Origin: a virus
IMG/VR virus record: IMGVR_UViG_3300045988_105900
DNA length: 33,704 bases
Reading direction: 5' to 3' (one strand)
Below, piece after piece: positions 1-33,704 of this stretch. Every line of letters begins with the position of its first letter. Positions within the stretch are counted from its first letter, which is position 1. Made by a program: the position numbers and the translations under genes. Under the pieces are notes generated by a model. That model was not told the DNA's origin, did no database searches, and was given only the letters and a program-made list of their open reading frames with translations.

Positions 1-141
1 AATGAATGTAGGATGTAGGTGTAGGTAATAAGGGTATATAGATTTTTTTTGGGTCTTATATTTATATATATGCGCGCGCGCGCATATACGGCCATCGGGA
101 TGCGAGTGTCAAGTCGAATCGAAAAATGCAAAAAAAAAAAT
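1..141. repeat. Left copy of direct terminal repeat (DTR) or circular-assembly overlap
   Basis: 1..141 is repeated at 33563..33704. The only difference I find is GGG (97-99) versus GGGG (33659-33662). It contains a T8 run, an A11 run and a (GC)6 palindrome. Confidence 0.9.
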
Positions 142-178
142 CCCAGAACACCCGACTACATTTCCTACATCCTACATT
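5..178. repeat. 15-bp inverted repeat (aatgtaggatgtagg at 5-19, cctacatcctacatt at 164-178) carrying clustered TGTAGG hexamers
   Basis: TGTAGG occurs at 7-12, 14-19 and 20-25. The inverted form CCTACA/ACTACA occurs at 155-160, 164-169 and 171-176, and one more TGTAGG sits at 209-214. The left arm is inside the DTR and the right arm is just outside it. Confidence 0.8.
67..88. repeat. 22-bp perfect palindrome tatat(gc)6atata, alternating purine-pyrimidine (Z-DNA or cruciform prone)
   Basis: Read directly: the segment equals its own reverse complement. A second copy lies in the right DTR at about 33629-33650. A similar cacgcgcgcgcatg tract sits at about 33529-33542. Confidence 0.85.
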
Positions 179-280
179 TCGTACGGAAACCAACGATTTC
201 CGACACGCTGTAGGAGAAGTCTCGTAGCGAGTGTGCTAGGATTGAACCTGTTGAAAACAACTATACCACAGGAGAAGACC

Positions 281-5704: not shown

Positions 5705-5850
5705 CGCCAACCATCAACAACACCGACCAGCAATACCATGAAAGCCCAACGCGACACGCCATCATGAAAGCCGAAATGGTACGATGGTATCGAGAACAAC
5801 GACGCCAAATGGCAGAGCAGTTAAGGAGGATTTATGGCAGGGAAAACTGA
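5701..5850 (+). CDS. Hypothetical 49-aa protein
   Basis: ATGA coupling at 5701. MTPTINNTDQQ...; it falls below the track cutoff from this start. Confidence 0.35.
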   Translation: MTPTINNTDQQYHESPTRHAIMKAEMVRWYREQRRQMAEQLRRIYGREN

Positions 5851-6145
5851 AGAAGCCCTCTCAAGCCGCATGGAACAAGTCAACGGACTCATCGACAAAG
5901 CCTACTCAGACATGAAAGAGTACGCGCGAAAAGCCGAAACAAACGACGATGACCGCGAATACAACATAAGCATGGCAACCAACGCGCAGAGAAACTACGT
6001 CAGCTTCATGAACCTGCTCATGACCATGACCAAAAACTTCGACGAAGCGGTGAAAGTCGATTCGCACAAAAGCAAGACCACAGCCGCCAAAACACCCAAG
6101 ACCACCTTGCAGAAACTCGTAGCGAAGGAAGCGAAACGCGCATGA
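5834..6145 (+). CDS. Hypothetical helical protein with a basic tail (possible small terminase candidate)
   Basis: AGGAGG lies before ATG 5834. Predicted all-helical with a Lys-rich C-terminus. No recognisable family. Confidence 0.4.
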   Translation: MAGKTEEALSSRMEQVNGLIDKAYSDMKEYARKAETNDDDREYNISMATNAQRNYVSFMNLLMTMTKNFDEAVKVDSHKSKTTAAKTPKTTLQKLVAKEAKRA

Positions 6146-7009: not shown

Positions 7010-8458
7010 ATGCTGGTGAAGAACCCAAACTGGAGGGCTAACGTACGCCCAACATCCGACGTGGCAATCATGGCCGCGGAATACGTGAACTGGGGCCGCG
7101 GAAACGCAATCCTCCCATTCCAAGTCGAATTCCTCAACAACGCCTTCCAACGCAAGAAGGACGGCACTTGGAAATACAAGCGCGTCGCATTGAACATGCC
7201 GCGACAGAACGGCAAGACCAAAATCCTCACCGCACCAATCCTCTACTACCTGTTCGTACTCGGCCTGAACGTGCTCGTCACCGCGCACGAGCAGATAGCC
7301 GCCAACAAAATCATGGAGGATTTGAAAGACGCCATCGACTCGAATTCAGAACTGAAGGCCGAAGTCACGCATTTCAGCACCACCATGGGCCGCGAGCGCC
7401 TACAGTTGAGGAATGGCGCGTTCGTCCGGTTCCGCTCCCGCAAGAGCGCTTCCGCGGGCATGGGCGGCACGTTCGATTTGGTTGTCTTCGACGAGGCGCA
7501 GGAGCTACGCTCAGAATACGAGGCGATGATTTCCAAGACCCTGAAGACGCGCCGCATGGCGATGATAATCTACACGGGCACCCCGTTCCTCCCATCGTCC
7601 ATCGGAGACACGTTCAACGTGTTCCTCGACAACGCAGAAAACGACGATATGGCGTATGCGGTGCGTTATGGCATCGATGACGAGACCGCGGACATCGAGG
7701 ATGAGCAGTTGTGGGCGCTCACCAACCCGCTCTACCCGGACGTGATTCCACGCGAAGCGTTCCTCACCGACGTGGCGATAGCCAAACAGGGTGGCGCGGA
7801 CGGCCTCATCGACTTCCGCATTCAAGACTTGGGCCTGTGGTGGGCGGACAGCATTCCGCCAGCAATCCCAATGGACTTGTGGGACAGCGCATATTCCGAC
7901 CTCCAACATGACCGCGATACGCTCGTCTACGCGCTCACCTTCGACCCGGCAACCAGCACGCTCGCCCTGTCCGTGGCTGCGAGCACCGAAGAGGTGACGG
8001 TCGGCTCGCAGCATTACGACAAGTGGGCGTACATCATCGGCGAAATCGTGGACGAGCGCCCCACCACCGAATCATGGCAGTGGGTCGTGGACGAATTGAA
8101 GACACGCCCACGCAAGACCACGCTCATCTTGGACGCTGGCGGCTTGAACAATCCGATAAGGGACATGCTTCCGCGCGGATTGAACGTGGTCCAGCTGACC
8201 GGCACCGAATTCCTCGCATCCCAGCAGGGATTCCTCGACCTGTTGAACGAGGGACGGTTCAAGCATACGAACAATCCGCAACTGACCGCAGAAGTGCAGA
8301 ACGCGCAGAAGCTCAAATCCGGTTCGGATGACCAGTGGAAGTTCGCTCCGATACGCAAGACCGAAACCACGGCTGGACTGAAGGGAGTGTCCATCGCCGC
8401 ATGGTATCGCGGCGTCAACCGTCCGAAGGAACGTCAGGTCAGGGAGGTGATAGCGTAA
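7010..8458 (+). CDS. terL: Terminase large subunit
   Basis: Walker A MPRQNGKTK, Walker B DLVVFDEAQE, an ATPase-then-nuclease layout and a length of 482 aa. Confidence 0.9.
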   Translation: MLVKNPNWRANVRPTSDVAIMAAEYVNWGRGNAILPFQVEFLNNAFQRKKDGTWKYKRVALNMPRQNGKTKILTAPILYYLFVLGLNVLVTAHEQIAANKIMEDLKDAIDSNSELKAEVTHFSTTMGRERLQLRNGAFVRFRSRKSASAGMGGTFDLVVFDEAQELRSEYEAMISKTLKTRRMAMIIYTGTPFLPSSIGDTFNVFLDNAENDDMAYAVRYGIDDETADIEDEQLWALTNPLYPDVIPREAFLTDVAIAKQGGADGLIDFRIQDLGLWWADSIPPAIPMDLWDSAYSDLQHDRDTLVYALTFDPATSTLALSVAASTEEVTVGSQHYDKWAYIIGEIVDERPTTESWQWVVDELKTRPRKTTLILDAGGLNNPIRDMLPRGLNVVQLTGTEFLASQQGFLDLLNEGRFKHTNNPQLTAEVQNAQKLKSGSDDQWKFAPIRKTETTAGLKGVSIAAWYRGVNRPKERQVREVIA

Positions 8459-28113: not shown

Positions 28114-28587
28114 TTAGTTGAATTCTTCAGTGAGGGACGGGCGAGGGAGGGGGGCGGTGGCTTTTCCATCATCATCCATTACGGTGGTGAGCCCGAGCAG
28201 ATGGATGAGACCGTAGCGTCGATAGTAGGTTTCGAAACTGCCTACCTGTTGTGCAGCAGCAGCCGGATACGTGTAGCTGCTGCTTACCGCCTCACCGTGT
28301 TTCACCATGTCCATAAGGTTTTCACCCTCGTGCGCGCTCTCGTAGACTGCGACGGTGAGCGTGTTGTAGACGGTTGGCATGTCCGTGTCCGCGCCGATGA
28401 TTTCGCTTGCGCCTACCGCGGTCCAGCCCAAACCGTTTTCCACCATGCTTGACTTGACCAACTGCCAAATGTCGTTCAGTGTGGCATACTTGTAACCGTA
28501 TCCTTCGGCGGTGCGTTTCACCGCTTCGACGGACTGTTGCACGGCTGTGATTCGGGTGAATACGTCGTGTCGTTTGTCATTCGCCAT
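28114..28587 (-). CDS. erf: Erf-family single-strand annealing protein
   Basis: AAGGAAG RBS before ATG 28587 (the track start is 28638). GYKYATLNDIWQLVKSSMVENGL and QQVGSFETYYRRYGLIHLLGLTTVMDDDG are ERF family blocks. Confidence 0.7.
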   Translation of the reverse strand: MANDKRHDVFTRITAVQQSVEAVKRTAEGYGYKYATLNDIWQLVKSSMVENGLGWTAVGASEIIGADTDMPTVYNTLTVAVYESAHEGENLMDMVKHGEAVSSSYTYPAAAAQQVGSFETYYRRYGLIHLLGLTTVMDDDGKATAPLPRPSLTEEFN

Positions 28588-28957
28588 TGTTCTTCCTTTT
28601 TTCGATTTCGTTTTCGATGAGTGTTTCGTCAACTGCAAGGCTGTATGCCGTTGCTACGATATCATCGAAGTCCTGTTGTGTGTGCGGGAGGTGTTCGCTG
28701 AGCGCCAGTCCGGCTATGGTTGCAAGGTTTTCGTCGGTTGGGTTAGTCTCGTAGGCGTCTATGCGGCTCTGCCATACGTCGTGGCGTCCTTGCAGCCATG
28801 CGGTGAGCGCGTTCTGATAGTCTCGTGGCGTGTACGGTGTCGCGATTTCGAATGCGACTATGGTGCCTGCCACGTCTGCTCCGGCGTTGAGCGCACTGTT
28901 GGATAGGCAGCTTAGGTATGTCTCAACCTTGTTGCGAAAATATTCTGACTGATTCAT
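28577..28957 (-). CDS. Hypothetical protein
   Basis: GAGGT RBS. It is the first gene after promoter P4. No recognisable family. Confidence 0.45.
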   Translation of the reverse strand: MNQSEYFRNKVETYLSCLSNSALNAGADVAGTIVAFEIATPYTPRDYQNALTAWLQGRHDVWQSRIDAYETNPTDENLATIAGLALSEHLPHTQQDFDDIVATAYSLAVDETLIENEIEKRKNNGE

Positions 28958-29027: not shown

Positions 29028-29528
29028 TCATACGTTCCAAAACATGTTGGAAACCCATACACCGCGTGCGTATTCAACCGGCGTACCCTCAAGCCACTTG
29101 AGGCAACCGTGGGGGGTAATAAGCGCCACTAGCCCCTGACCATCGAACACGTGATTGTGGTATCCGCCGTCAACCCACGCCTGAACCATGTTGCGAGAGT
29201 CTGAAGCATACGGCCCGTTCTCATACTTATATGCGATTCCATTATGCGCGATATACCCCCTATCGGTGCGGAACGGATGACAGTTGCGCGGCTCGACTGC
29301 CCCATGCGTGGCGAGACGGAAGTGAATCAGGCACGGGGCGTTCCTGAGCTGCTCCCAATGACTGAAGATGAATCCGACAACCTTCAGCGGGTCAATGTTT
29401 TTGAACACCCTCAGACGTTCTCCATCCCACCAGCTAACACCTCCACCGTCCGGATTCGACTCACTCATAGCGAGAATGTCGCACGGTTCCGGCATTGCGC
29501 CGGGTACTGCGGTTACGATAACACACAT
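29028..29528 (-). CDS. Class-II (Ntn, Cys2) glutamine amidotransferase-like thiol enzyme
   Basis: Starts MCVIV (nucleophile Cys after Met). LIHFRLATHG, NCHPF, IAHNG and SDSRN match YafJ/GATase_4-type class-II amidotransferase blocks. Confidence 0.8.
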   Translation of the reverse strand: MCVIVTAVPGAMPEPCDILAMSESNPDGGGVSWWDGERLRVFKNIDPLKVVGFIFSHWEQLRNAPCLIHFRLATHGAVEPRNCHPFRTDRGYIAHNGIAYKYENGPYASDSRNMVQAWVDGGYHNHVFDGQGLVALITPHGCLKWLEGTPVEYARGVWVSNMFWNV

Positions 29529-29585: not shown

Positions 29586-31193
29586 TCAAGCGTTGTCCTC
29601 GGCGATATTCTTCCTGATTCGAGCATACCGGGCGCACAGTTCGGGACGCCCAGCACGCTTGTACAAGCGCAGTGCCGTACGTTCCAACGACTCCACGGTT
29701 GGCTTGCCATGGGAAGCTCGCGCCTTGCGACTGTACAAGATGTTTTCGAGCACCCGTTGCGCGTCAATGCGGCTGCGACGGTAATAGTCGCATCCGTCCC
29801 ATATCACCTCGCCGCCGGCTGCATGGTAGATGCGGAAGTAGCTGAGGCTACGACACGACTCGCCATGGTCCACAATCATCTTCGTAGCGCACTTAAGATA
29901 GATGTGCAGCGGTTGCAGATTGCGTGACGGAAAAGCGTAGGGGTGTGCGGTGCCGGATAGTCTTTCGTCAATGCCGTTGCGGCGGATTATTCGGCGATTC
30001 TGATTATCACACCATGCCTGACGTGCGCGGCGCGTGTCACCGTGGCTTGCGCGTGCGCGACGTGAAGCCCTGATGTTGGTTTCGACATTGCGGCGAACCT
30101 CCTTTGCGCGTTCCTTGCGCTCCAGCTCCTCTTTCGCATTTCGCATGGCTGCTGCGCGGTGTGCCGCGTCGAGACGTTCCTTAATGGTGAGGCGTGGCGT
30201 GTCGGCCACGCTATCGGCCATGCATGAGGCGTATCGCTCGATAACGCCCTCCTTGACCGTGCCGAGGGGGTGCTTTTCAAAAAACCGCCACATGGCGCGC
30301 GCCCACTTGACCGCCGGCTCAAGCTTGTCGGCACTGCCCGCATACCAGCAGTCAAACGTACGCAGCTCGATAGTGTCGGCGTGTTCGTCATTCACTGCCG
30401 TATGCTTGCCGGTGTACTCTCCATGATTGAGCTCGCACCAGTAATCATCGGACAAGTGGCGCATGTTGAGTCGCTCGCATTGCGTTCCGTCCAGTCCGCG
30501 CAACGCCCAATACCAGCGGCTTGCGCACTGGTTGGGGGTGCGTGCAACGTGGATGTGGCCGCCCGCGTTTTCGCCATAGTCGGGGATGCGTTCGACTAGT
30601 TTCACCAAGGCTGGAAGTTTGGACATGTCGAGAATATTGGTTTGCAATTCGACGCCACCAGCCTCCAATGACGGGTCACTGTCCCAGCCGGCAATGAGAC
30701 TCGATTCGGTGACGGCAGCCACGAAGTCGGTGTAGAGCTCGGATTCCATTTCGACTTCCACCCCGAACGTGAACTGCTTGCCGTTTCTGAAGGTGTACGG
30801 GTAGGTGTACTCGGTTTCCTTGGAGGCTAGGAGCGCCCCGTTGCCACGGTGACGCGGACAGCAGCAACCACCGTCCGAACTTCCCTCGCATCCCTCGCAG
30901 AGGATTGCGTCGCAATCGTAGGCCTTGCAATTATAGTAGGCGCTACTTGGGTCTAGTGGCGTTCCGCACTGCGCGCACCATGCTGTTTCGTCTTCAAAAT
31001 CCGTGTCATCGTAGACTCGGCGCATTTCGGAATCTGGCGTGCGGACGTAGAATTCGTCGCCGATTGCGACGCATTCTGCGGTGCCTTCCGGCCACCGGTT
31101 GCAGTATGTCCGGAAGAGATACTGTGGTATGCCGCTGCGGTCTATCCATTCGGCATACGGTTCACCTCCGAGGATTGCGATTCTTTCAGCCAT
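29586..31193 (-). CDS. Amidoligase_2 (glutamine-synthetase-like COOH-NH2 ligase) with an N-terminal Cys-rich module and an Arg-rich C-terminal extension
   Basis: AAGGAG RBS before ATG 31193 (the track GTG 31202 lies inside the RBS). FGVEVEME, WDSDPSLEAGGVELQT and NAGGHIHV are the three amidoligase blocks. The N-terminus has CAQCG...CEGCEGSSDGGCCCPRH. The C-terminus holds a repeat, SRRARASHG / SRKARASHG. Confidence 0.8.
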   Translation of the reverse strand: MAERIAILGGEPYAEWIDRSGIPQYLFRTYCNRWPEGTAECVAIGDEFYVRTPDSEMRRVYDDTDFEDETAWCAQCGTPLDPSSAYYNCKAYDCDAILCEGCEGSSDGGCCCPRHRGNGALLASKETEYTYPYTFRNGKQFTFGVEVEMESELYTDFVAAVTESSLIAGWDSDPSLEAGGVELQTNILDMSKLPALVKLVERIPDYGENAGGHIHVARTPNQCASRWYWALRGLDGTQCERLNMRHLSDDYWCELNHGEYTGKHTAVNDEHADTIELRTFDCWYAGSADKLEPAVKWARAMWRFFEKHPLGTVKEGVIERYASCMADSVADTPRLTIKERLDAAHRAAAMRNAKEELERKERAKEVRRNVETNIRASRRARASHGDTRRARQAWCDNQNRRIIRRNGIDERLSGTAHPYAFPSRNLQPLHIYLKCATKMIVDHGESCRSLSYFRIYHAAGGEVIWDGCDYYRRSRIDAQRVLENILYSRKARASHGKPTVESLERTALRLYKRAGRPELCARYARIRKNIAEDNA

Positions 31194-31261
31194 TGCTATC
31201 ACTCCTTAATAGATGGCTTTTTTTTCGTGCCCTTGCGGGACTTGCACCCGCATGTATGCTG

Positions 31262-31589: not shown

Positions 31590-31970
31590 TCACAGCTCGG
31601 CCATGGTGTATGTTTTGTGGCGCATCGAACCGCATGCAATCACGTTAACCTGCTGTCCGTCCTTGACGGCCTTGCGCAACCACGGCAAGGTAACGCCCCT
31701 GAAAACGTCATCCGTCTGCGCGAGAAATTCCTTGACGTGGCGCAATGTCGTTGCGCTCAGGAGCCCCATTGCAACCTTGACCTCGTAGGTCTCGGGCACC
31801 ACGCCCCAGTCGCTTGTCGGCGTGACAGTCGCTACAGTGGTGTCGTACGATTTGAGTACGTAAATCATGCCGTTTTCGGTGTCCCACCGCTCGACAAAAG
31901 CCTTGCCATAGAAGGACTTGCGGCCATCATACTGCGGCTGTAGTTCGAACGTGCCTAGATATTCACTCAT
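31590..31970 (-). CDS. Hypothetical 126-aa protein
   Basis: AAGGAG RBS before ATG 31970 (the track GTG 31979 lies inside the RBS). It has its own promoter, P2. DGRKSFYGKAFVERW...LKSYDTTVATV is a motif I recognise only as 'phage hypothetical'. Confidence 0.6.
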   Translation of the reverse strand: MSEYLGTFELQPQYDGRKSFYGKAFVERWDTENGMIYVLKSYDTTVATVTPTSDWGVVPETYEVKVAMGLLSATTLRHVKEFLAQTDDVFRGVTLPWLRKAVKDGQQVNVIACGSMRHKTYTMAEL

Positions 31971-31999
31971 TTCAATCACTCCTTGTGGTTTTGGTTTTT

Positions 32000-32040
32000 A
32001 ATATACCGTATTTGTTGTCGAGCGTCAAGTATGGCGTGTC
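32000..32040 (-). promoter_or_regulatory. Leftward promoter P2: GACACGCC-N4-TTGACG-N17-TATATT
   Basis: On the + strand: aatata at 32000-32005, cgtcaa at 32023-32028, ggcgtgtc at 32033-32040. Confidence 0.75.
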
Positions 32041-32119
32041 GCAGTCGGCTGAATGCCGCAGCCTTGCCGCGCCGGCAATGGAGCAACACCCACTTTTGAG
32101 GGTGCCGCCCCACCGGACC

Positions 32120-32302
32120 TCAGGCGAGGGCCGCCCAGCTGCCTTCAAGGTCAGCATACCCCCTTGGGTCATCCGTCACACCCAGTGGCGTGAGCTCCCC
32201 GTCGCGGTAGGCGTAGACCTCGCCGGCTGAGGTGATGAACACCCCCTCGCCCCCTTGGACGTATCCCTTGCCGCTCAATGCCTTATGCATTTTGTCCTCC
32301 AT
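32120..32302 (-). CDS. Hypothetical 60-aa protein
   Basis: It is the first ORF downstream of promoter P1. Weak AAAGAG RBS. No recognisable family. Confidence 0.45.
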   Translation of the reverse strand: MEDKMHKALSGKGYVQGGEGVFITSAGEVYAYRDGELTPLGVTDDPRGYADLEGSWAALA

Positions 32303-32325: not shown

Positions 32326-32365
32326 AATATACCGGATATGACGTCGTGTGTCAAGTCGGCGTGTC
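32326..32365 (-). promoter_or_regulatory. Leftward promoter P1: GACACGCC-N3-TTGACA-N17-TATATT
   Basis: On the + strand: aatata at 32326-32331, tgtcaa at 32349-32354, ggcgtgtc at 32358-32365. Confidence 0.75.
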
Positions 32366-32409
32366 GCGATAATGGTTCTCAATACCAAGCCCATGAGTTA
32401 CGAACCCGG

Positions 32410-32562
32410 TTAACAGATGAACGCGGTTAACGCTTGAACCATGTTAACAGATGAACCCACTTAATGCATTGACCTACTTAATGCATGTCATAGGTTAACG
32501 CATGTCATTGGTTAATGAATGAACACACTTAACGGATGGACCGAGTTAATGAATGCCTAATG
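32410..32562. repeat. Nine tandem 17-bp repeats (iteron/operator-like), consensus TTAAYRnATGnAC + 4 nt
   Basis: Units start at 32410, 32427, 32444, 32461, 32478, 32495, 32512, 32529 and 32546, an exact 17-bp phase. Examples: ttaacagatgaac, ttaacgcttgaac, ttaatgcattgac, ttaatgaatgaac. Confidence 0.9.
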
Positions 32563-32576
32563 AGAACCGTTCTCAC

Positions 32577-32616
32577 GACACGCCAACTTGACGTCATGTG
32601 TCAAGTGATGTATGCC
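32577..32616 (+). promoter_or_regulatory. Rightward promoter PR: GACACGCC-N3-TTGACG-N17-TATGCC (weak -10)
   Basis: gacacgcc at 32577-32584, ttgacg at 32588-32593, tatgcc at 32611-32616. It has the same architecture as P1-P3 in mirror orientation. Confidence 0.5.
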
Positions 32617-32645
32617 ATAGGTATCACCCAACCAAGGAGGAAACA

Positions 32646-32960
32646 ATGAACATCGAACTCACAGGCGAGGAAGTCGCCAAGGTAATCGCCGAGCAAATCG
32701 AGGAAGCCACCGGCGAGTGCTGCGAGGCATTCTCCAACGCCACCGGCTCGGTAATCACACTGCACGACACAGTGACCGCCCGCATCGTCCCACTGTTCAG
32801 CGTCATGGACGTAACGCCACTCGATGGCCCGTTCCGCCGCGAAATCACCGAAATCCCGCTGGAAGCAAGCTCAGTCAGCGGACTTAGGGAGATCGCCCAC
32901 GCAATCGACGAAGCCGCGTCGCACGTCCTAGCCGCAGCAGTGGCCACCGCCAAACACTGA
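32646..32960 (+). CDS. Acidic 104-aa hypothetical protein, monocistronic
   Basis: AAGGAGGA RBS before ATG 32646 (the track start is 32598). By my count, 17 Asp/Glu versus 6 Lys/Arg. It is followed by a strong terminator. Confidence 0.65.
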   Translation: MNIELTGEEVAKVIAEQIEEATGECCEAFSNATGSVITLHDTVTARIVPLFSVMDVTPLDGPFRREITEIPLEASSVSGLREIAHAIDEAASHVLAAAVATAKH

Positions 32961-32976
32961 CCGACGCCACACGCAC

Positions 32977-33002
32977 AGCGCCCCGCACGGGGCGCTTTTT
33001 TT
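32977..33002 (+). terminator. Rho-independent terminator
   Basis: agcgcccc gcac ggggcgct stem followed by a T7 run (32996-33002). Confidence 0.85.
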
Positions 33003-33562
33003 ATGCCCGCAAAACGATAACGATTCTCAATATCACGGGGGATACACCCCCTACACAAGGGGGGGGTGCCGGAAACCGACACACACGGAGCTTCACCGCA
33101 CGCCTTGCCGATTGCGCCGACGATGGCGAATGTGGCACGATGCCATCCAGAGCCATTCTTTGGGGCCTTGGACGGGCTTTCACGCAGAACCCTAGTACTT
33201 TTACCTTCCAGCGCTGAAAGGCTCTCAGATGCGCCTTTATTCGAGTCCACGCCTCCGGCAGCTGCGGCCATGGCAGGTGCGCATGGCGTTCCGAAGGCTC
33301 GTGCGACGCCGCACTTCGACTGATAGGGCGGCCATGTGGCGTGGTTGCGTCTTGGTTTCGGCGGATTTCCAACGCTTGGACTGGTGGCGGCCATGGTTGT
33401 GGGCGATACTTTCTGTGAAGGAATTGTGAACGGAGGTGTGACCTGCGTGATGGAATTGTGAAAGTCATATCAAAATTCGGCACTAAATTTTCCTGATTTC
33501 CGGCGTGTCATGGCGTGCCATGGTGTATCACGCGCGCGCATGAGAATGACCATCCCAAAACC

Positions 33563-33704
33563 CAATGAATGTAGGATGTAGGTGTAGGTAATAAGGGTAT
33601 ATAGATTTTTTTTGGGTCTTATATTTATATATATGCGCGCGCGCGCATATACGGCCATCGGGATGCGAGTGTCAAGTCGAATCGAAAAATGCAAAAAAAA
33701 AAAT
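33563..33704. repeat. Right copy of direct terminal repeat
   Basis: 142 nt, colinear with 1..141, with one extra G in the catcGGGGatg run. Confidence 0.9.

Follow-up and report, generated by a model that had tools for sequence, protein, structure and literature searches.

What do nine exactly phased 17-bp repeats do beside the early promoter of a phage? The window analysed here, the whole stretch of 33,704 nucleotides, carries such an array between a leftward early promoter, P1, and a divergent candidate promoter, PR. An earlier note, made from the letters alone, took the locus for a nucleoprotein assembly site, which could be a replication origin with iterons, a centromere-like site or a cooperative operator array that shuts both early promoters.

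The window is a complete, ~33.6-kb genome of a virulent-type Bifidobacterium siphophage. Comparison of its two ends revealed that bases 1-141 recur at 33564-33704; thus, it is a circularly closed assembly of ~33,563 bp. Its nearest named relatives are eight Bifidobacterium phages (BP677P1-4/P8, BA720P3, BA746P1 and BP742P1), all sewage isolates with B. pseudocatenulatum or B. adolescentis as hosts and with 72-80% DNA identity to the window at the array region. The genes shown in the three of their records that were examined are all annotated as hypothetical, and a literature search on these phages was unproductive.

The plus strand carries, up to ~24 kb, the primase-helicase, head, terminase (7010-8458), tail and lysin genes. 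The minus strand, from 32302 down to 24065, holds an early and recombination operon, which encodes small proteins without assignment, Erf, a gp2.5-like SSB, a 65-aa HTH protein, VRR-NUC, a RecE-like exonuclease, a SNF2 helicase and a Cys-rich 538-aa protein beside a class-II glutamine amidotransferase-like protein. The earlier note had assigned the primase-helicase to 29586-31202, where no such signature was found; the real gene lies just past the start of the window (Table 1). Its product scores E 2.5e-9 against DUF5906 and E 1.6e-12 against TIGR01613 (below the curated cutoff), and BLASTP aligns it with P4 alpha at 1e-4, the alignment reaching towards the origin-binding winged helix (PDB 1KA8). 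Scanning ~48 ORFs against Pfam, PHROG and NCBIfam gave no match to ParA, ParM, TubZ or a centromere-binding protein and no integrase, repressor or telomerase, in agreement with the earlier remark that the stretch has no ParA-like gene and no recognisable repressor. Rfam and tRNA scans of the whole window returned no match.

Table 1. Features of the array locus and of the origin-like element, with positions in the whole window.
Feature	Coordinates	Strand	Description
Origin-like element, right part	142..190		inverted CCTACA/CTACA x3 (CCTACA x3 at 156-176), ~100 bp upstream of primase-helicase gene
Primase-helicase, 751 aa	281..2536	+	P4-family SF3 helicase (DUF5906), then Prim-Pol domain
Early promoter P1	32326..32354	-	TTGACA (32354-32349), 17-nt spacer, TATATT (32331-32326); 11/12 match to consensus
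GGCGTGTCG box	32358..32366		directly upstream of P1 -35 hexamer
Left palindrome copy, imperfect, CGATAATGGTTCTCA	32367..32381		version of 15-nt TGAGAAC-N-GTTCTCA
Array	32401..32562	+	degenerate half-site CGAAC (32401), then nine 17-bp units from 32410
Perfect 15-nt palindrome TGAGAACCGTTCTCA	32561..32575		2-nt overlap with last array unit
CGACACGCC box	32576..32584		upstream of PR; with palindrome, right arm of inverted repeat
Candidate promoter PR	32588..32616	+	TTGACG, 17-nt spacer, TATGCC; read from sequence
Acidic 104-aa protein gene (pI 4.5)	32646..32960	+	optional cassette; no family match
Intrinsic terminator of cassette	32977..33003	+	8-bp stem, 7 G-C pairs, then T run
Third palindrome-module copy CGATAACGATTCTCAATATCAC	33015..33036		far border of cassette
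G5-N5-C5-N7-G8 element	33037..33066		right array boundary in cassette-less relatives
Origin-like element, left part	33565..33704		TGTAGG x3 (33570-33588), AT-rich stretch, palindromic (CG)n, A11 run

The phased repeats themselves are beyond dispute. All nine units described before are present, starting at 32410, 32427, 32444, 32461, 32478, 32495, 32512, 32529 and 32546. TTAA at positions 1-4 and T at position 9 occur in every one of them, and A at position 8 and G at position 10 in eight of the nine. Both Tandem Repeats Finder (in three overlapping pieces) and a repeat finder recovered the period of 17. The lag-17 identity of the array is 0.63 vs ~0.1-0.34 at other lags, a value reached by none of 20000 shuffles. 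The genome has 25 TTAA in total, nine of which are inside the array, all exactly in phase, and the G+C content is 39% in the array vs 56% in the genome. The palindromes said to arise in some cores were also found on counting (GTTAAC four times, ATGCAT twice).

Each 17-bp unit consists of two same-strand hexamers, RT[G/T]AAC, spaced 9 then 8 bp, and the consensus unit is TGAACACGGTTAACACA. As written in the window, the unit follows the formula TTAAY-N3/4-TGNAC-N4, i.e. RTNAAY hexamers in one orientation with alternating distances of 8 and 9 bp, and belongs to a sub-type (TTAAYgnATGnAC) with a degenerate second hexamer. A site scan of the window genome found no good half-sites outside the array. 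RNA folding of both strands gave unexceptional z-scores (-1.5 and -1.0) and Rfam no match; thus, the array is not an RNA.

We compared array loci from GenBank isolates and from IMG/VR, ENA and Logan contigs. Close relatives, with primase-helicases 86-93% identical, have the array at the same place in all cases except one genotype, and wherever present it starts 5-45 bp past the P1 upstream module. A logo built from 160 distinct units of more than 20 genomes reads A-TGAAC-nnn-GTTAAC-rn. The two hexamers hold 0.7-1.9 bits per position, with 1.3-1.9 bits at T1, A3, A4, C5, G9, T10, A12 and A13, and the spacers (positions 6-8 and 15-16) hold 0.2-0.5 bits. At the level of sequence, such conservation of a hexamer core with free spacers indicates selection for sequence-specific binding and favours a bound protein over a neutral minisatellite. 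To this extent the notion of a nucleoprotein assembly site holds; its origin and centromere forms are disfavoured, as set out below.

The spacing of half-sites (9, 8, 9, 8) is kept along whole arrays, and TGAAC or TTAAC can be found in either slot of the unit. Half-units are therefore swappable, making up a single kind of site in direct orientation. Other sub-types of the unit are TTAATGAATG[AACCCCC/TCATGGG], TTAATATATTAACCCCC and C-run variants with a period other than 17. The earlier note had proposed looking in related genomes for conserved phasing alongside divergent sequence. Close relatives do have the array at the same locus with divergent unit sub-types and 9/8 spacing, although the C-run variants depart from the 17-bp period.

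The number of units is highly variable. The 28 distinct complete arrays range from 0 to ~16 units, one contig stops inside the array after at least 53 half-sites (at least 26 units), and several assemblies break within it. The array-less genotype, an IMG/VR contig (L012), has the P1 module joined straight to the G-rich element usually found behind the array. The same junction is found in ENA records OICK01004185.1 and OIDK01000137.1, which are 99.4% identical to each other, the latter being ~99.9% identical to the array-less IMG/VR contig. Its presence in separate assemblies implies that the array can be lost from circulating phage. Since the same P1, small early genes and full set of candidate binder genes are retained in this genotype, the array is not needed for early expression.

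Beyond the close relatives, neither an array nor paired half-sites were found in genomes with primase-helicases 80% (L043-L045), ~41-42% (L036, L037) or 36% (L038) identical to that of the window. Thus, absence of the array from related phages, which the earlier note would have counted as a refutation, holds for these three lineages, whereas close relatives carry it. Two-unit matches in IMG/VR are limited to this phage family. Scanning 185,579 species genomes with two consensus units gave three matches, all outside Bifidobacterium. Paired TetR-type operator sites account for two; the third, from a Vibrio, is an array of 5 x 17 bp, the neighbours of which (an Hsp70-like protein and a 432-aa ORF with a signal-peptide-like N-terminus) offered no lead. 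Judged by these sequence comparisons, the array is real, under selection and specific to one phage lineage. It is of a general kind already known, an iteron- or operator-like binding-site array; what is unusual is that its co-oriented hexamers follow a 9+8 register and that its units number anything from none to more than 26.

The surroundings of the array help to define its limits. P1 drives the leftward early operon and is conserved in all close relatives; counted from the inferred start site of P1, the array spans about -80 to -245. The GGCGTGTCG box is also found upstream of P2 (32033) and P3 (31551) and, inverted, at PR. Each arm of the flanking inverted repeat carries the box of P1 or PR, as had been noted (GACACGCC boxes at 32358-32366 and 32576-32584), and the perfect palindrome of the right arm and the third related copy likewise proved to be where they had been reported (Table 1). 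The left palindrome is nearly perfect in most relatives and is replaced by GCAAATTGCCGCAACGGCTGAC in one sub-lineage. PR has a poor -10 element in the window genome and was not called by a consensus promoter scan of the window; its counterpart in BP677P3 is TTGACG-18-TATAAT.

A 24-bp inverted repeat had been described as bracketing the array. The repeat exists and is even longer, with arms at 32350-32384 and 32558-32592 (35 nt, 86% complementary), which in sequence terms are two copies of one promoter-upstream module (palindrome, CGACACGCC, -35 hexamer) belonging to the divergent P1 and PR. It is not a property of the array, however: 18 of the 28 distinct arrays compared come without the right arm, PR and the acidic gene. 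PR, the acidic gene and the terminator form an optional cassette that BA720P3, BP742P1 and most metagenomic (IMG/VR) relatives do not have, and in these cassette-less relatives the array directly adjoins the third palindrome copy or the G5-N5-C5-N7-G8 element. With the cassette optional and the left element variable, the inverted repeat does not belong to the array. The acidic protein, named before as a candidate binder, cannot be a required one, since most array-bearing genomes are without its gene.

An element with the layout of an origin lies elsewhere, just upstream of the primase-helicase gene. The 80% and ~41-42% lineages keep it together with a conserved non-coding block, and in them it is built from short repeats, AT-rich DNA, a palindromic (CG)n run and an inverted set of those repeats; the ~41-42% lineage has a changed repeat motif, GGTAG, and the same architecture. 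In SaPI origins, similarly, iterons that face each other flank an AT-rich centre, and the gene of a self-loading helicase adjoins (PMC9371898). On this sequence evidence, the element at 33565-33704/1-190 is the likely origin. GC and AT skew, with turning points at ~128 and ~15.6 kb, was discarded as an origin locator, being confounded by transcription direction and opposite in sign to the bacterial rule.

We consider it very improbable that the array itself is the replication origin, with iterons that recruit an initiator and melt nearby AT-rich DNA. It does have the tandem direct repeats with a conserved core that characterize plasmid iteron arrays, its G+C is low, and it sits 1.2 kb upstream of the primase-helicase gene, within the main intergenic region. 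The 17-bp iterons of RK2 and incC/incA of plasmid P1 are plasmid iteron origins and control arrays, incA being a non-essential second cluster that titrates the initiator. Classic iterons are ~22 bp apart, in helical phase, and come with a Rep-family initiator and, next to them, DnaA boxes and an unwinding element. The window array shows none of this: its period is 17 bp and its half-sites are 8 or 9 bp apart, out of the helical phase that spacings of ~11 or 22 bp would give, and the clearest case of an AT-rich element between inverted repeats lies 1 kb from it. Iterons of an origin are required in cis and would be present wherever the initiator of the replicon is, but the array is missing from one genotype and from the 80%, ~41-42% and 36% lineages, which have the same replication module. 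In SaPI origins, 6-12 iterons, each a penta- or hexanucleotide, serve a self-loading Rep helicase (PMC9371898). Their multiple 5-6 nt cores near a helicase-initiator gene resemble the array, but they are split round an AT-rich centre and face each other (PMC9371898), an arrangement found in the origin-like element and not in the array, which has a single orientation and no centre. Array-less genomes and the better origin architecture of that element, kept across lineages with its repeat motif changed, speak against the origin proposed in the earlier note. The least probable reading of all is the centromere-like site of the same note, which would be a plasmid-type centromere (parC/parS/tubC-like) of a plasmid prophage. 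Contiguous short direct repeats at a promoter do recall parC of R1 and pSK41 and parS of pSM19035. Yet the ~48 ORFs include no partition NTPase with its binding protein (ParA, ParM and TubZ all being unfound), and nothing points to plasmid or prophage maintenance: integrase and repressor are likewise unfound, the relatives were isolated from sewage on Bifidobacterium strains, and the array is dispensable.

The presence of the array follows that of the early genes. The 129-codon ORF (31590-31979), the 75-aa ORF and the 126-aa ORF (28577-28957) are present in all array-bearing genomes compared and absent from the 80% and ~41-42% lineages; the 60-aa protein has a weak partial match in one contig of the 80% lineage only. 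The 65-aa HTH protein is lacking in L043-L045, and the ~41-42% lineage keeps an HTH protein 46% identical to it. By these sequence comparisons, the array appears to track the P1-P3 module of small early genes and not the replication module. Taken with the fixed place beside P1, this co-occurrence makes a role in early transcription more probable than one in replication. The lineages compared are few, and co-occurrence among them is confounded by shared descent.

Possible binders are the early proteins specific to the array lineage, of 60, 126 (31590-31979), 75 and 126 (28577-28957) aa, or a host factor. Searched against Pfam, PHROG and NCBIfam down to E = 10, the small early proteins matched no DNA-binding family and no RHH protein, the sole exception being the 65-aa protein with weak HTH matches. 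The latter is present where the P1-proximal palindrome is (array lineage, L037) and absent where there is no such palindrome, a pattern suggesting that it may bind this palindrome. The 126-aa product of the 129-codon ORF (PF26096 by precomputed annotation, phrog_4264) was modelled with a pLDDT of 80; Foldseek and a PDB profile search gave no significant match for the model, and no obvious DNA-binding fold is seen in it. No arrays were found beside distant homologues of this protein in unrelated phages. Presence or absence of early genes in comparison with array-less L012 was tried as a test for the binder and rejected as non-discriminating, L012 keeping all candidates.

The main rival to promoter tuning comes from phage P4. 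By analogy with P4 crr or with incA of P1, the array could be an accessory iteron cluster for the P4-type primase-helicase, ~1 kb from the core origin, that enhances or titrates initiation; we regard this as conceivable but doubtful. An alpha-like primase-helicase with an SF3 helicase domain, as P4-type ori/crr has, is encoded near the array, and its alignment with P4 alpha runs towards the origin-binding winged helix. As in P4, the replicon holds two distinct clusters of repeats. The array and the origin-like element share one large intergenic region, and a conserved pair of TTGTGAA[G/C], 11 bp apart, lies ~150 bp from the latter. According to the annotated P4 record, the type-1 iteron TGTTCACC (reverse complement GGTGAACA) occurs six times in ori and ten times in crr, and GGTGAACA has TGAACA in common with the array half-site, a six-base likeness that could be chance; a literature search for the P4 iteron by sequence was unproductive. 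In P4, octamers of either orientation are spaced 9-11 bp apart or more loosely and irregularly, unlike the array sites, which are strictly 8 or 9 bp apart in one orientation. Dispensability and variable unit number would suit an accessory cluster. However, the 80% lineage, with a near-identical helicase and winged-helix segment, has neither the array nor TNAAY pairs, and array sub-types differ among genomes with primase-helicases 89-92% identical. Residues ~400-460 of the primase-helicase are predicted to form a helix, helix, beta-hairpin core in a model of residues 361-500 that has low confidence (pLDDT 54); winged-helix proteins head its Foldseek list with non-significant matches (best E 0.3).

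The variability of the array suggests other readings. That it is a decoy or sink for a host DNA-binding protein (a regulator or defence sensor), its dose varying in an arms race, we consider distinctly unlikely. Hypervariable copy number, occasional loss of the whole array and its AT-richness in a GC-rich genome agree with a decoy. The hexamer core is also constant while the small early proteins diverge to 55-65% identity, which fits a conserved binder encoded outside the early module. Against this, the two-unit scan of species genomes gave no Bifidobacterium match, single units being too short to search, and the idea is purely inferential. There is very little chance that the array is a functionless minisatellite produced by slippage. 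Units are quickly gained and lost, and assemblies break inside the array, but conservation is limited to two hexamers while spacers drift, a pattern that neutral homogenisation does not give, and sub-lineages whose units differ greatly in sequence still have the same architecture. That the array is a new kind of dose-setting device also seems unlikely to us. Here a phage or host protein of no known class would polymerise head to tail on the array, and the number of units would be under arms-race selection, e.g. for titrating a host regulator or defence protein or for setting early-gene dosage per host strain.

Our best explanation, which we advance tentatively, is that the array is a cooperative array of binding sites that tunes early promoter P1, and PR where present. 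Just as tentatively, we regard it as an accessory regulatory element. Molecules of a sequence-specific DNA-binding protein would occupy the sites cooperatively, in head-to-tail order. With a site every 8.5 bp, each binder would be rotated by ~291 degrees, i.e. -69 degrees, from the previous one; with such a step the filament would spiral instead of lining one DNA face, and the bound proteins would wind round DNA as a left-handed spiral with ~5 sites per turn. The filament would begin ~45 bp upstream of the P1 -35 hexamer and, in genomes with the cassette, end against the PR upstream module. It could tune or shut off early transcription, the number of units setting dose or capacity. This number shifts fast, slippage or unequal recombination being the probable cause; it could be changed by the Erf/RecE-type recombination system of the phage itself, and recombination between the flanking palindrome copies could remove the array or the cassette. 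The sequences show how the array is built, the conservation of its hexamers, its constant place beside P1, its variable unit number and dispensability, and its co-occurrence with the P1-P3 module; that a protein occupies it, which protein this would be and in which direction P1 and PR would respond are matters of inference.

Several observations bear on the promoter-tuning explanation. P1 is near-consensus, and the array stands at a constant position beside it. Against tuning, the array lies upstream of the promoter without overlapping it and can exceed 350 bp, which is long for an operator; in addition, the early proteins match no DNA-binding family, and the array-less genotype keeps P1 and the early genes.

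The closest known parallels to the array are RHH operator and centromere arrays, among them MetJ on 8-bp metboxes and ParR on parC. In a further system of this type, omega/ParB of pSM19035 binds contiguous 7-bp heptads as a left-handed spiral on straight DNA (PMC9499535). Like the sites of omega/ParB, the array consists of contiguous, gapless short repeats upstream of promoters, variable in number, and has a register out of helical phase, so that binders would spiral (PMC9499535). Contiguous 8/9-bp half-sites at a promoter, as in RHH-type operators, are indeed what the window has from ~45 bp upstream of the P1 -35 hexamer. Unlike in RHH arrays, no RHH protein or partition ATPase was found in the window, every site has the same orientation, the unit is a 17-bp hexamer pair (9+8 bp), and the array stays clear of the promoter.

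Human gut metagenomes commonly contain phages of this type. A single early protein of the window phage has 822 database matches at E <= 0.001; the best 120 of the 822 are at least 63% identical to it, and many of these are on contigs of 29-34 kb. Their hosts include B. adolescentis and B. pseudocatenulatum, and none of the genes or control elements of these phages has been studied so far. Relocating the likely origin to the element beside the primase-helicase gene is useful for engineering these phages or for building Bifidobacterium vectors. If the binder of the array has a new DNA-binding fold in an 8.5-bp head-to-tail register, it would be of structural interest. The array is the most variable non-coding feature of this phage family and lies at the switch point of early transcription, and its natural alleles, from zero to more than 26 units, make dose dependence easy to test directly.

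The first and last 141 bp of the window (1-141 and 33564-33704) are identical, and the contig is therefore a circularly closed assembly with an arbitrary break point. The break point sits within a (CG)n/AT-rich element with an origin-like layout; about 100 bp separate this element from the primase-helicase gene downstream of it. The lineages whose primase-helicases are 80% and 42% identical to that of the window (the 80% and 42% lineages) keep the architecture of the element; in the 42% lineage its repeat motif has become GGTAG.

The neighbouring non-coding block of about 500 bp contains near-invariant stretches in all relatives, for example CTCACCGCACGCCTTGCCnATTGCGCCGACGA, GCCATTCTTTGGGGCCTTGGACGGGCTTTCAC, GAACCCTAGTACTTTTACC and CCTTTATTCGA, separated by variable sequences and insertions. 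No Rfam match was found in this block. The block may encode a non-coding RNA or belong to the origin; in mycobacterial prophages, origins based on RNA have been reported (PMC7157519). The block includes a pair of TTGTGAA[G/C] motifs that resemble P4-type iterons (GGTGAACA) and are kept in most close relatives as well as in the 42% lineage. Further along there is a tandem duplication that is missing from the relatives, which have a candidate rightward promoter (TTGACT-17-TATCAC) at the corresponding site.

Coordinates of sequence features and genes in the window
Feature	Position (strand)	Description
Origin-like element	33565-33704 / 1-190	TGTAGG x3, AT-rich stretch, palindromic TATATGCGCGCGCGCGCATATA, A11 run, then inverted CCTACA x3
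Conserved non-coding block	33070-33560	
Paired TTGTGAA[G/C]	33412-33433	TCTGTGAAGGAATTGTGAACGG; two motifs 11 bp apart
Tandem duplication	33502-33523	10 bp; GGCGTGTCAT GGCGTGCCAT
CGACACGCC box	31551, 32033, 32358 (+); 32576 (-)	3-4 nt upstream of -35 hexamers
Optional cassette	32588-33036	
66-aa ORF	31972-32172	
Counterpart of the 180-aa fusion protein	31590-32302 (-)	
538-aa protein	29586-31202 (-)	Cys-rich, C-terminal part very basic
Amidotransferase-like protein	29028-29528 (-)	class-II glutamine amidotransferase-like

The CGACACGCC box is common to the three leftward early promoters P1 (32354), P2 (32028) and P3 (31546) and to the candidate rightward promoter PR, and a related copy, GGCGTGTCA, is found at 33502. 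The box probably acts as a regulatory element, or an upstream promoter element, that these promoters share.

At the array locus, the GenBank record of BP742P1 (OP172705.1, 3570-3990) contains a run of Ns between two identical copies of a segment made of the spacer, a six-unit array and the palindrome. The doubling may be genuine, a higher-order duplication of 308 bp, or it may have arisen as an artefact of scaffolding across the array. In a contig of the 42% lineage (L037, 9075-9185), the equivalent position is occupied by a single palindrome, GTGAACCGGTTCAC, flanked on both sides by GATAAAACGTTTTACCACCCCCC; the TGAAC half-site of the array recurs here in inverted form. Five tandem 17-bp units (ATGAACTTTGTTAACTT) were also detected in Vibrio sp. 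S9_S30 (NZ_JAAUWT010000009.1, ~5830-5920), with the two hexamers and the 9+8 spacing of the phage array. They lie upstream of an uncharacterised 432-aa ORF with a signal-peptide-like N-terminus. The likeness is probably convergent, and the Vibrio units could mark a binder similar to the putative one of the phage array.

Among the early-operon genes, the 538-aa protein had been taken for a primase-helicase in the earlier note; it lacks any primase-helicase signature. Together with its amidotransferase-like neighbour it may form a peptide- or metabolite-modifying enzyme pair, and both proteins are missing in some relatives. Some relatives (P0105, P0114) encode a single 180-aa protein that joins the product of the first early gene (~56-60 aa) to that of the 129-codon gene. 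The 66-aa ORF between these two genes shows little conservation and is unlikely to be a real gene.

The optional cassette is self-contained, consisting of PR, a gene for an acidic protein of 104 aa with a pI of 4.5, and a strong terminator, and is edged by copies of the palindrome module (a 15-nt palindrome with the box). Not all relatives carry it, and between those that do, identity is only 35-69%. Its organisation is that of an accessory early gene, which may act in host takeover or anti-defence.
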